Below, one piece after another: positions 847 to 5,142 of a DNA stretch of 29,501 bases (positions within the stretch are counted from its first letter, which is position 1; each line of letters starts with the position of its first letter). This DNA comes from Candidatus Heimdallarchaeota archaeon (GTDB lineage: Archaea > Asgardarchaeota > Heimdallarchaeia > JABLTI01), in the NCBI GenBank assembly GCA_030614005.1, contig JAUWKS010000042.1, positions 1-29,501 on the forward strand, given 5' to 3'. The notes under the pieces were generated by a model, which was not told the DNA's origin, searched no databases, and saw only the letters and a program-made list of their open reading frames with translations. A program made the translations under genes and the position numbers.

Positions 847-1713
847 ATGGAAAAAAAGGTCAGAAAGAAAATCGAAAGTATACAAAGGGAAGAGATTACT
901 GCTTATCATATCTACTGTTATCTAGCTAAGCGCGAGAAAAACTCGCACAATAAAGAGATTCTGACCAATATCGCCAAGGACGAGATGGGCCATTACAACG
1001 ATTTCAAAGAGCTCACAAAAAAAGATGTTAAACCTTCAAGAGTGCAGATTTTCTTCTATTCTCTCTTATGTCTTATATTTGGATTGACCTTTTCCCTTAA
1101 ACTAATGGAGCGGCTTGAAGCAAAAACTTCGATAGATTATTCCAAACTAGAACAACACTATCCTGGTATCGTTAAGATAATAGAAGAAGAGGAAGCTCAC
1201 GAAAAAGTTCTTCTTGATTTGATCGATGAAAAGAAGCTCAACTATGTTGGCTCCATTGTATTAGGTTTGAATGATGCCTTAGTTGAACTTACAGGTGCTT
1301 TAGCTGGTTTTACTTTTGCCATTCAAAATAGTCGCGCTATTGCTTTAATGGGTTTGATTACAGGTGTTGCTGCCACTTTCTCTATGGCTGCTAGTGAATA
1401 TCTCTCTCAAAGGCAAGAAACCGGTCGCTCCGTCGCTTTGAGATCCAGTCTTTATACTGGTCTAACTTATGCTATTACAGTAGTATTTCTGATAACTCCT
1501 TACTTTCTGATAGAAAATCCCTTTGTAAATTTGGGCGTTATGATCAGCATTGTTATTTTTATTATTTTTATATTTAATTTCTATATCTCCGTCGCAAAAG
1601 ATTTGTCGTTTATTCGACGTTTTCTTGAGATGGCTGGAATTAGTGTCGGAGTAGCTCTTCTCTCATTTGGAATAGGTTGGGTTGTGCGGACCTTTCTCGG
1701 TTTAGATATTTAA
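847..1713 (+). CDS. Rubrerythrin (ferritin-like)-VIT1/CCC1 iron transporter fusion
   Basis: N-terminal di-iron E/ExxH motifs (REEITAY, DEMGH, EEAHE). VIT1 signature GLNDALVELTGALAG...SMAASEYLS followed by TM helices. ATG 847 preferred over the ORF-track start at 838. Confidence 0.9.
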   Translation: MEKKVRKKIESIQREEITAYHIYCYLAKREKNSHNKEILTNIAKDEMGHYNDFKELTKKDVKPSRVQIFFYSLLCLIFGLTFSLKLMERLEAKTSIDYSKLEQHYPGIVKIIEEEEAHEKVLLDLIDEKKLNYVGSIVLGLNDALVELTGALAGFTFAIQNSRAIALMGLITGVAATFSMAASEYLSQRQETGRSVALRSSLYTGLTYAITVVFLITPYFLIENPFVNLGVMISIVIFIIFIFNFYISVAKDLSFIRRFLEMAGISVGVALLSFGIGWVVRTFLGLDI

Positions 1714-1900
1714 TCTTGGTTTTTGTGAAATCTCGATAATAAATAAAATTTAGAAATTAGTCTCAAATTTATTTTATGCTTTAGAAACTATCTCATATAT
1801 CTTGACTCAATAAGATTCATCTGTTGTTTAACTCTATCTGAATAATTTTGCACTACATTTGAATGGAAATGGATAGTGTATTGTGCTTTTCTCTCTCATT

Positions 1901-3011: not shown

Positions 3012-3797
3012 TCATTTTATTAGCTGCACCAGATGACTAATTCCCGTTGCCGGGGGAACAAAATAGACGGTAAAATTATCTGGTACAATCGCTAAAGCAG
3101 AAAGGTATTCTTGATAGCTTTCAGATAGCATATATGACTTGAAATTACAAACAAGAATGATTTTCCTTTTATTATAAGCAAACTGAATAGCTTTCACAAA
3201 TTCAAGAACCTGTGAACTAGTTTTACAAGCAGAACCAAGCATTAAACCTTGCAAATTCTCATTAGCTAAAATCTCTACTGCTCTTTCCGGTGACGAAACT
3301 TCACCATACATAAGTGAAACTTTGAAACCCTCTGAATGCAACCTTTCAGTTAAGAAATCGCGCATTTTATTTGTTACTCGAGTAATTAGTTTAGGGCTGG
3401 GTGGTAATTGTTTCTCTATTTCGTTGGAAGTTGTAACCCATTTTGGTTCATAGATTAGTAAAGCTTGTTTAATGAACTCATCTGGAATATCTTTGAACAT
3501 TTCAGCACAGCAATCTTTTAATAACTGAGCAATTTCATGAAGAGAATATTTGGAAAATTCCTTGAATGTTTCTCCTATCATTATTACATTAAATGGCAGA
3601 GCTTCTGGATGATTCTTTTGAAGAGTAATGATCTCTTTGATTTTCTTATTTATTGTTTGTAAATCATCGTCTGTTTCAGGGTGACCTATGAGAATACCTG
3701 AAGCATTTGCTTGAAATAGATGGTTGCAGGTTATCTTTCCTGTTTGAGCTTCCTCAACAATATCGAAATTCTGTGCAACTACTTTGAAGATTGCCAT
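3012..3797 (-). CDS. tpiA: Triosephosphate isomerase homologue, circularly permuted
   Basis: Starts at VVAQN...TGKI...LIGHPE (H39, E41), then MIGET, IYEPKW (E117), MYGEV and MLGSAC. The normally N-terminal RKIILVCNFK (N218, K220)...VYFVPP segment is at the C-terminus. Confidence 0.85.
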   Translation of the reverse strand: MAIFKVVAQNFDIVEEAQTGKITCNHLFQANASGILIGHPETDDDLQTINKKIKEIITLQKNHPEALPFNVIMIGETFKEFSKYSLHEIAQLLKDCCAEMFKDIPDEFIKQALLIYEPKWVTTSNEIEKQLPPSPKLITRVTNKMRDFLTERLHSEGFKVSLMYGEVSSPERAVEILANENLQGLMLGSACKTSSQVLEFVKAIQFAYNKRKIILVCNFKSYMLSESYQEYLSALAIVPDNFTVYFVPPATGISHLVQLIK

Positions 3798-3808
3798 GGT
3801 CTATCTTG

Positions 3809-3879
3809 GTTAACGCACTCTTAAAGAGTTGGTGTTAACTTTTGATTCTCTGCGAGTCCGCCCAACTCCCGCGAGGGAG
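3809..3879. other. Two stem-loops at the tnpB 3' end (candidate IS right end / omegaRNA scaffold)
   Basis: GTTAAC..ACTCTT-A-AAGAGT..GTTAAC (3809-3839) and CTCCC-GCGA-GGGAG (3866-3879). Confidence 0.45.
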
Positions 3880-4269
3880 GAACTTTCGTTTGACGTTTGG
3901 CTGTGTATCGCTAAAAAACTTCTCTCGAAAGACTCGAATATCTTTCAAGAGTCGTTGCCTGACCACAAGGCGTTTCTGTGATAGTGCTAGCAGAGCGAGG
4001 AAGCGCTGCATTTGTGTTCCTGCACTGCTTGTGTCTCGATCTATTTCTAGCCCACAATCACAACTAATAGTTCGTTCGGAGAGTTTGCGGTTCTCTTTAT
4101 TCATGCAGTAACTGCATCTTTTGGTTGTTCTTCGTTCACTGATCCTTATTACGTTTTTACCCAGCTTTTCTGCTTTGTAGGTTAAGTATCCAGCGAAGCG
4201 ACCAATCGAACCACTGCTTTGCATGGTTCTATGTCTGCTTTTATCATTCTTCTTATCGCTCTTCTTGCT
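3835..4269 (-). mobile_element. tnpB: 3' remnant of IS200/IS605-family tnpB (Cas12f-like)
   Basis: GRFAGYLTYKAEKLGKNVIRISERRTTKRCSYC...SCDCGLEIDRD matches the TnpB C-terminal Zn ribbon and RuvC-III Asp. RuvC-I/II and the N-terminal part are absent. Confidence 0.85.
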
Positions 4270-4380
4270 CTTACTCATTGCTCTCAGAACGCGTGGTGGA
4301 ACCATTGTTGGTCCTGGAGTAAAGACAAGTTTTTCATTCGAATTATAAAAATCTTCAAAACCACTAGTTAGTTGATTCAT
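4270..4380 (-). pseudogene. 5' fragment (37 codons) of a class V PLP aminotransferase, fused in frame to the tnpB remnant
   Basis: KLVFTPGPTMVPPRVLRAMSK is the typical N-terminus of serine-pyruvate/alanine-glyoxylate aminotransferases. The rest of the enzyme is missing. Confidence 0.75.
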
Positions 4381-4668: not shown

Positions 4669-5142
4669 TTATCCAAGTGCTTCCCAAGTGGCATATTTCT
4701 CCACATAAAGTTTAGCTTTTCGTTCGAATTCTTTAAGACTATTTTTGAACTCTTTTGCAGCAGTAGTATTTAATGGATCGTCAGGATTTGGGTTTGATAA
4801 TAGAAATCGTAATGATTCCACAATATCTACTAAATTACTTGCAGGTGTCCAATCTTTTCCCAATATACCTACACAAATTCTATCTTTGAAAATATTTGGA
4901 TGCCAAATAGGAGTTATAACTTTCACTTTTGGGGGCTTAAATGGGAATGATCTTGGCACATGTATTTCAAATTGAAATACGCCACCAGAATATAAACCAG
5001 TCCCTATCATAAATCCTCTCCAAACTCGAGTGTTCCCATTTATTGGTGTAAAGTTTGGTTCCTCTCTCTTCATTTCCCCTGCTTCAATAGCTAATCTTGC
5101 CCAAAAGTCATCCTCACTGAGTTCCATTTGATTCTTCCTCAT
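4669..5142 (-). CDS. Ubiquitin-conjugating enzyme E2 (UBC fold)
   Basis: FPFKPPKVKVITPIWHPNI, active-site ICVGIL, WTPA, and NPNPDDPLNTTAA. These are canonical UBC motifs with the catalytic Cys intact. Confidence 0.95.
   Translation of the reverse strand: MRKNQMELSEDDFWARLAIEAGEMKREEPNFTPINGNTRVWRGFMIGTGLYSGGVFQFEIHVPRSFPFKPPKVKVITPIWHPNIFKDRICVGILGKDWTPASNLVDIVESLRFLLSNPNPDDPLNTTAAKEFKNSLKEFERKAKLYVEKYATWEALG

Follow-up and report, generated by a model that had tools for sequence, protein, structure and literature searches.

Triosephosphate isomerase (TPI) gives the commonest enzyme fold its name and serves as a textbook example of how enzymes catalyse, move their loops, and fold. Its loops 6, 7, and 8 hold the phosphodianion through their backbone amides; closure of the lid is essential both for rate and for suppressing the formation of methylglyoxal.

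The archaeal protein described here, from a Heimdall-type Asgard archaeon, is homologous to canonical bacterial and eukaryotic TPI (TpiA, EC 5.3.1.1, PF00121; PDB 7rmn, 2btm, and 6bve, and 7n8u from the Asgard archaeon Prometheoarchaeum) over the stretch from β3 to α8 (69.6 bits, Z 15–16), and also over the β1–α2 unit, which is relocated. The two share the catalytic Asn, Lys, His, and Glu and the motifs AQN, GH.E, GE, and YEP.W; a model also predicts for the archaeal protein the loop-3 dimer of TPI. They differ in that the chain of the archaeal protein is permuted by two β-α units, its phosphate-binding loops 6, 7, and 8 are rebuilt, and GHSERR has become GHPET. The same genome also encodes an archaeal-type TPI (genome G000, contig C67:14646-15272; P0021, 226 aa), presumably the housekeeping enzyme. 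This belongs to the same superfamily and has a similar β1 motif (LVNFKTY, compared with VCNFKSY in the permuted protein); however, it has the normal order, is of the short archaeal type, and is only 24% identical to the permuted protein over 170 residues. A precedent for a TPI paralogue acting on another sugar phosphate beside a normal TPI is the L-erythrulose-1-phosphate isomerase of Brucella (11ef), although its chain order is normal, unlike that of the archaeal protein, and the present analysis showed no specific sequence relationship between the two.

Natural circular permutation within (βα)8 barrels has been described for transaldolase B relative to the class I aldolases (Jia et al. 1996, Structure 4:715; see PMC7092467). 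By engineering, the TIM barrels sTIM11 and DeNovoTIM15 have been permuted (PMC13105402), and further designed permuted barrels appear in PMC8250049. Transaldolase B, sTIM11, and DeNovoTIM15 are precedents for barrels that tolerate permutation, but they are other enzyme families or designs, and none is TPI itself. The searchable full-text literature, which does not extend to subscription-only papers, yielded no account of a TPI that is circularly permuted in nature.

The open reading frame and its order of elements

The window (the whole stretch of 29,501 nucleotides that was analysed) contains a complete open reading frame for a permuted TPI-family protein at positions 3012 to 3797; the frame and all of the features within it lie on the minus strand. 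It comprises 261 codons plus a stop, with the ATG at 3797 and the TGA at 3012–3014. A longer N terminus is excluded by an in-frame TAG two codons 5′ of the ATG (3801–3803), which limits the stop-to-stop frame to 262 codons.

The Pfam TIM family (PF00121) matches residues 4–203 at profile positions 55–244 of 245 (E 3.8e-19; 69.6 bits against a cut-off of 20.1). The match opens at profile position 55, and hence the start of the reading frame corresponds to β3 of an ordinary TPI, the first ~54 profile positions being absent from the N terminus. All matches to the protein in the PDB by sequence are bacterial- or eukaryotic-type TPIs, which align from around residue 60 of the solved chain. The core of the protein, residues 1–207 (3177–3797), thus corresponds to β3–β8 and α3–α8 of the TPI barrel, as given by the Pfam match, by positions 59–251 of a profile of canonical TPIs, and by structural matches in which residues 1–209 of the model equal residues 57–254 of TPI-family chains.

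Beyond the Pfam match lies a tail of ~58 residues. When the C-terminal 62 residues were scanned alone against Pfam, no TIM match was returned, and the one hit, to TPR, was weak and due to chance; so short a segment calls for profiles made for the purpose. When the C-terminal unit was compared by BLASTP with the N terminus of the genome's own archaeal TPI, just a nine-residue match emerged (E 0.021), which is unconvincing alone. A hidden Markov model (HMM) was therefore built from 79 canonical TPIs recovered by exhaustive search and scored on 24 full-length relatives. In the window's protein, residues 4–205 match positions 59–251 of this profile (99.5 bits), and residues 211–260 match positions 2–54 (9.7 bits; i-E 7e-4 among the 24 sequences). 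The same pair of hits in swapped order was present in all 24 permuted relatives scored. Profile–profile comparison by hhalign placed the aligned C-terminal units at the N terminus of the canonical TPI alignment with a probability of 96.4% (E 1.1e-9), or 93.8% (E 1.7e-7) when only the 14 Asgard C-terminal units were used, whereas one reversed and 20 column-shuffled control alignments did not exceed 1.9%. In distant permuted relatives, the homology of the tail is plain by eye, as these tails carry IGGNWKTY and GIAPS, the classical β1 and β2 motifs.

The appended unit, residues 213–261 (3015–3161), thus corresponds to β1–α1–β2–α2, with predicted strands at residues 213–218 and 242–247 and predicted helices at 228–237 and 253–260. 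Between it and the core lies a linker, YNKRK, at residues 208–212 (3162–3176), leading from the old C terminus (α8, helix at 194–207) to the old N terminus (β1); the gap between the two HMM hits falls at residues 206–210. The collinear order from β1 to α8 that characterises the TIM family is not met by the window's protein, given its swapped hits, while a circular permutant requires that both segments be homologous to the parent, that their order be swapped, and that the parent domain be covered once, all of which hold here. The gene accordingly encodes, as sequence profiles and models show, a natural circular permutant of the TPI barrel.

An earlier note on this DNA, made from its letters alone, had proposed much of this layout. 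The limits of the frame, its length, and the upstream TAG were confirmed on the sequence; the proposal that the protein starts at β3 agrees with the Pfam match, which reaches profile position 55 at residue 4; and the claim that β1–α1–β2–α2 is appended at the C terminus (there given as residues 210–261) is borne out by the HMM and hhalign results. The two TIM profile hits in swapped order that the note expected were indeed found, with the canonical-TPI profile. Its call for homologues with the same breakpoint in other Asgard genomes was answered, as was its call for a bridged junction at position 3170, which contigs from independent runs span.

Authenticity of the permuted gene

Sixteen full-length homologues, 256–272 aa in length and 38%–89% identical, have both ends in common with the window's protein; these derive from NCBI, JGI, ENA, and Logan assemblies. 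The gene is also present in three other genomes of the same genus, such that 4 of 11 genus genomes carry it in all. The α8–β1 junction near position 3170 is bridged, with no mismatch and no alternative joints, by contigs of four runs from three studies of marine sediment and cold seep. Against six orthologues, dN/dS was 0.08–0.15 overall, and 0.12–0.32 for the appended unit where dS was unsaturated.

These data bear on the possibility that the arrangement arose through mis-assembly, or through a recent accident, perhaps mediated by the neighbouring transposon remnant, that fused a TPI gene lacking its 5′ end to the beginning of another. Such an explanation is invited by a multi-copy repeat of the TnpB type whose end coincides exactly with the start codon. 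Orthologues with wholly different flanks and no transposon, however, likewise begin with MAIFKVVAQN and end in the same C-terminal unit; the internal junction is bridged without mismatch by contigs of three independent studies; both parts are under purifying selection; and the permutation is common to proteins down to ~25% identity. An artefact or a recent fusion is thus refuted—by orthologues, bridging contigs, selection, and distant permuted relatives—and retains next to no credibility. The gene passes, on the first three of these grounds, as a genuine permutant.

Predicted fold and dimer

An AlphaFold2 model run on the 16-sequence alignment (pLDDT 88.7, pTM 0.87) contains eight strands and eight main helices. 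Their order along the chain is β3 to α8 (residues 3–207), followed by β1, α1, β2, and α2 at the positions given above. The sole weak block of the model is residues 121–130, the tip of loop 6 (pLDDT 55). In a Foldseek search, the best hits were all TPIs, over ~208 columns with a TM score of ~0.62 and an E value of about 1e-10; the modest TM score is expected, because an aligner that follows chain order can match no more than four-fifths of a permuted protein. A structure search independent of Foldseek aligned residues 57–254 of TPI-family chains to residues 1–209 of the model with Z scores of 15–17. The best match was the L-erythrulose-1-phosphate isomerase 11ef (Z 16.9, rmsd 2.3 over 185 residues), and the Synechocystis TPI 6bve gave Z 15.9. 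Unrelated but complete TIM barrels span the model from residue 1 or 4 to residue 261 (7uek, Z 15.5; 7osk, Z 14.1). As complete barrels align over the whole model, the 261 residues are predicted to form one closed eight-unit barrel, although no structure has been solved; the earlier note had suggested such modelling, and the outcome agrees with its reading.

A homodimer was predicted with an ipSAE of 0.74, compared with 0.00 for the best of three controls. Of 30 proteins whose structures were solved as pairs of one chain, 20 attain the mark applied to this score, as does 1 of 23 proteins whose structures are single chains. The homodimer runs agreed in at least 98% of contacts, with a partner pLDDT of at least 91. 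The predicted interface resembles that of TPI. Loop 3, residues 10–23 (3729–3770), is the predicted inter-subunit loop, and its residues 17–23, which include Thr19, meet His39, Asn218, and Lys220–Ser221 of the other copy. Many TPI dimers have been solved, and the model may therefore be reproducing these; the prediction shows likeness to TPI and is not proof of binding. The predicted contacts nonetheless place the relocated β1 residues beside the β4 histidine in space.

The models suggest how the permutation could be accommodated. The new termini (between α2 and β3) and the new linker (from α8 to β1) would both lie on the side of the barrel that points away from the active site, its N-terminal face. 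With termini and linker on the face opposite the catalytic and interface loops, all eight loops of the catalytic face could form as in an ordinary TPI. Asn218 and Lys220 of the relocated β1 would then sit by His39 (β4) and Glu117 (β6), and a classical TPI dimer is predicted, in which loop 3 would reach, via Thr19, into the active site of the partner, as loop 3 of functional TPI does with Thr75.

Active-site residues and phosphate-binding loops

The window's protein retains the full catalytic set. Asn218-Phe219-Lys220 (3138–3146; motif CNFK) is equivalent to catalytic Asn11 and Lys13 of the TPI motif NWK, and now lies near the C terminus; Cys217, Asn218, and Lys220 are invariant, and Asn218 and Lys220, together with His39, contact loop 3 of the partner in the dimer model. 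His39 (3681–3683) is the equivalent of catalytic His95 and lies in GHPE instead of GHSE. Glu117 (3447–3449), in the motif YEPKW, is the equivalent of the catalytic base Glu165. Among the 16 homologues, the Asn, Lys, and His are invariant, and the Glu is kept in 14 of 16, including the window's protein. The exceptions are P0006 and P0011, sister orthologues (68%–70% identity) from independent sources, in which the catalytic Glu is replaced by Gln (YQPKW) while the Asn, Lys, and His are kept.

The phosphate-binding loops are altered. A classical TPI gripper comprises a glycine lid of the AIGTG type in loop 6, YGGS in loop 7, and GGAS in loop 8, and the window's protein meets none of these, with VTTSNEIEKQ, YGEV, and LGSAC, respectively. 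Loop 6 (residues 118–134; 3396–3446) keeps the PKW hinge and a conserved LPPS, but its tip is variable and free of glycine and coincides with the weakly modelled block. From the homologue alignment and the motif table, loop 7 is YGEV at residues 164–167 (3297–3308; canonical YGGS) and loop 8 is LGSAC at residues 187–191 (3225–3239; canonical VGGAS).

Across the permuted clades, the loop changes form a gradient. The domains fused in bacterial proteins are near-canonical (GNWK, GHSE, YEPRWAIG.G, YGGS, and VGG.S). Other members of the stand-alone clade have GHSE, YEPKWGSGSG, YGGR or YGGS, and LGSA. The Asgard subclade has GHPE (also GHPD and GHPA), YEPKW with a tip after it that lacks glycine and differs between orthologues, YGE(V/I), and LGSAC. 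The NCBIfam models for TPI (PRK00042, TIGR00419, and PRK04302) align to the region that Pfam TIM covers, but none of their equivalog cut-offs was reached by the window's protein, the best score being 43.2 bits against a required 293, and that for TIGR00419 being 31.1 against 130.6.

All four genus genomes that carry the permuted gene (G000, G081, G087, and G089) also encode a normal archaeal-type TPI (103–107 bits). The earlier note had asked whether the genome has a second, normal TPI, and this archaeal-type enzyme answers that question. The note had also listed the catalytic Lys, His, and Glu, which are Lys220, His39, and Glu117, to which Asn218 can be added; the changes it described in loop 6, from YGGS to YGEV, and from GGAS to GSAC are real by the motif table. 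Its impression that the protein resembles bacterial-type more than archaeal-type TPI fits the PDB sequence hits, which are bacterial- or eukaryotic-type TPIs, the Foldseek hits, and the 24% identity to the genome's own archaeal enzyme.

Function of the permuted protein

The protein is probably, on balance, a dimeric, permuted isomerase of the TPI family with a shifted substrate or role, and not the housekeeping TPI; this is inferred, and its activity is untested. A rebuilt phosphate gripper, together with a normal archaeal-type TPI in every checkable host genome of the genus, points to a paralogue with a different substrate or role. The earlier note had left it undecided whether function is retained or shifted; the leaning towards a shifted function is an inference from the degenerate lid, the replacement of Glu by Gln within the subclade, and the constant co-residence of a normal TPI. 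Scores well short of every NCBIfam equivalog cut-off, and a best structural match (11ef) that is a TPI paralogue with another substrate, also speak for a shift. The inferred rebuilding of the gripper comprises the glycine-free, variable tip of loop 6, YGEV in loop 7, and LGSAC in loop 8. Most likely, the Asgard subfamily is inferred to be a paralogue that would still perform enediol-type aldose–ketose isomerisation, but with a substrate or role other than interconverting DHAP and GAP in central glycolysis. The retention of catalytic residues alongside a remodelled phosphate lid makes neofunctionalisation probable. A more specific form of this idea is possible but can be offered only tentatively: the Asgard subclade may be a new enzyme on a permuted TPI scaffold, namely an aldose–ketose (enediol) isomerase without the classical phosphodianion gripper, acting for instance on a different sugar phosphate or a non-phosphorylated substrate, and a single ancient permutation may also have been the source of working TPI modules in bacterial glycolytic polyproteins.

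Ordinary TPI activity of the window's protein is not excluded, because none of the catalytic residues (Asn, Lys, His, and Glu) is missing. Nor do the loop changes alone prove that phosphate binding is lost, since archaeal TPIs also have a loop 7 other than YGGS (CGAG in the genome's own TPI). The protein could thus be a permuted isozyme, a second fully functional TPI that interconverts DHAP and GAP and is redundant with, or regulated differently from, the archaeal-type enzyme. Asn218, Lys220, His39, and Glu117, the TPI geometry of the predicted dimer, and strong purifying selection are all compatible with this, and the less-derived permuted relatives, with near-canonical loops and fusions to PGK, enolase, PFK, and PGM, fit glycolytic TPI activity of the architecture in general. 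The subclade itself is harder to reconcile with an isozyme, as its loop-6 tip lacks conserved glycines and varies between orthologues, its loop 7 has Glu where TPI has Gly, and the catalytic base has given way to Gln in two orthologues; moreover, each of the four genus genomes has a normal TPI, and the permuted gene, being carried by only 4 of 11 genus genomes, is dispensable. A second ordinary TPI is consequently regarded as rather unlikely. The Gln of these two orthologues could just as well mean that the barrel, though derived from TPI, does not catalyse but serves in binding or in a structural or regulatory capacity, and the degenerate phosphate-gripper loops would suit such a pseudoenzyme as well as the Gln at position 117 of P0006 and P0011 does. 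Asn218, Lys220, and His39 are, however, invariant, Glu117 is kept in 14 of 16 proteins including that of the window, dN/dS is as low as for an enzyme, and no partner gene is conserved nearby, so that a barrel without catalysis seems quite improbable. An isomerase with a shifted substrate or role remains the preferred reading.

The wider permuted family

Permuted proteins extend well beyond the Asgard archaea. Among the matches of the exhaustive search, P0019, P0020, P0022, P0023, P0029–32, P0042, and P0045 are stand-alone. Bacterial permutants (P0045, P0048, P0049, P0055, P0079, P0085, and P0040) have the same breakpoint as the window's protein, the core beginning at HMM position ~51–60 and the N-terminal unit ending at ~51–58. 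They differ from it in often being fused (to PGK, enolase, PFK, PGM, or PPDK) and in having near-canonical motifs, whereas the window's protein is stand-alone and archaeal, with degenerate gripper loops, and is ~25% identical to them.

Six of these bacterial proteins can be described as glycolytic polyproteins with a permuted TPI domain. P0048 is a fusion of PGK and a permuted TIM domain; P0049 joins a permuted TIM domain to enolase and lies on a bacterial contig with RsfS, Mfd, and SurA; P0055 joins a GatZ-like domain to TIM; and P0079 joins TIM to ROK. In P0085, PFK, TIM, PGK, and PGM are combined in 4030 aa, and in P0040, TIM and PPDK in 4398 aa. The bacterial genome behind P0049 has a canonical TPI besides the fusion.

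A further protein, P0041 (1189 aa, with its reading frame cut at the 5′ end), has TPI pieces ordered 162–251, 2–251, and 5–53, followed by phosphoglucomutase. As all of the pieces are closest to permuted-clade proteins, it is best read, from its sequence, as two putative tandem permuted TPI domains. Such a layout is by construction indistinguishable from the tandem-duplication intermediate of the classical model of circular permutation.

In a tree of the core, the window's protein falls in a 14-member Asgard subclade (SH-aLRT 100), which is nested in a stand-alone clade of 26–27 members that is probably mostly archaeal (support 100). When only unambiguous rows were used, all 37 permuted sequences fell on one side of a single branch, with 54 canonical TPIs on the other (SH-aLRT 79). 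P0132 was left out of this test, as it had no second HMM hit and fell among canonical TPIs. A single origin of the permutation would be compatible with the data but is not proven, with an SH-aLRT of only 79. The permutation is old and is common to DPANN archaeal and bacterial relatives. The earlier note knew of no natural TPI permutant; this stands insofar as none is described in the searchable literature, but the permutation itself is widespread, reaching DPANN archaea and bacterial multi-enzyme proteins. The 'Bathyarchaeia' label given by NCBI to one homologue (P0015, locus L041) was considered as independent taxonomic spread and rejected, since the genome collection puts that genome in the window's own genus.

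The conserved permuted family allows the barrel's folding order and the placement of its termini to be studied as a natural experiment. Databases label the permuted proteins 'triose-phosphate isomerase' or 'hypothetical', and plain TPI labels could inflate glycolysis calls in metabolic reconstructions of Asgard and DPANN archaea.

Only the permuted protein matches PF00121 in the Aenigmarchaeota genome behind locus L037 (G400), which spans ~1.0 Mb. PGK (PF00162) and the C-terminal domain of GAPDH (PF02800) were not found in this genome, although absence is not shown, as its completeness is not given. This hints that even less-derived archaeal members may not serve classical glycolysis.

Genomic surroundings

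There is no conserved gene neighbourhood from which a pathway could be suggested, and the flanks differ in every orthologous locus compared. Two loci have a DegV gene no more than 4 kb away, but the window and locus L033 do not, and its presence was treated as chance.

Upstream of the permuted gene lies a TnpB/Cas12f-like remnant (reading frame 3835–4380, Pfam Cas12f1-like TNB domain), which is part of a multi-copy repeat (window 3796–4380, and beyond 4100). Contig depth rises from ~5–10 to 60–280 at about position 3800, and loose ends in all four runs set the boundary of the repeat at 3795–3796, at the start codon. Among loci that are 85% identical, nucleotide similarity starts exactly at the ATG. 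The repeat boundary at the start codon, taken with similarity to the orthologous loci from the ATG onwards, indicates that, in this strain, other DNA has taken the place of the sequence originally upstream of the gene. Expression of the permuted gene in this strain is therefore uncertain, given that the repeat element abuts its start codon; no RNA data set was among the sequencing runs listed as containing the sequence.

Downstream, an arginase-family (agmatinase-like) gene at 1901–2878 is missing at the orthologous locus L004/L039 (G087), where the permuted copy is ~86% identical in DNA. At that locus, sequence matching window positions 1501–1714 follows immediately on the 3′ flank of the TPI-like gene. 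The difference in the agmatinase-like gene is an insertion or deletion between close strains. Some 900 bases upstream of the permuted gene, at 4669–5142 on the minus strand, lies a eukaryote-like gene for a ubiquitin-conjugating E2 enzyme (Pfam UQ_con, E 1e-32), which fits an Asgard genome.
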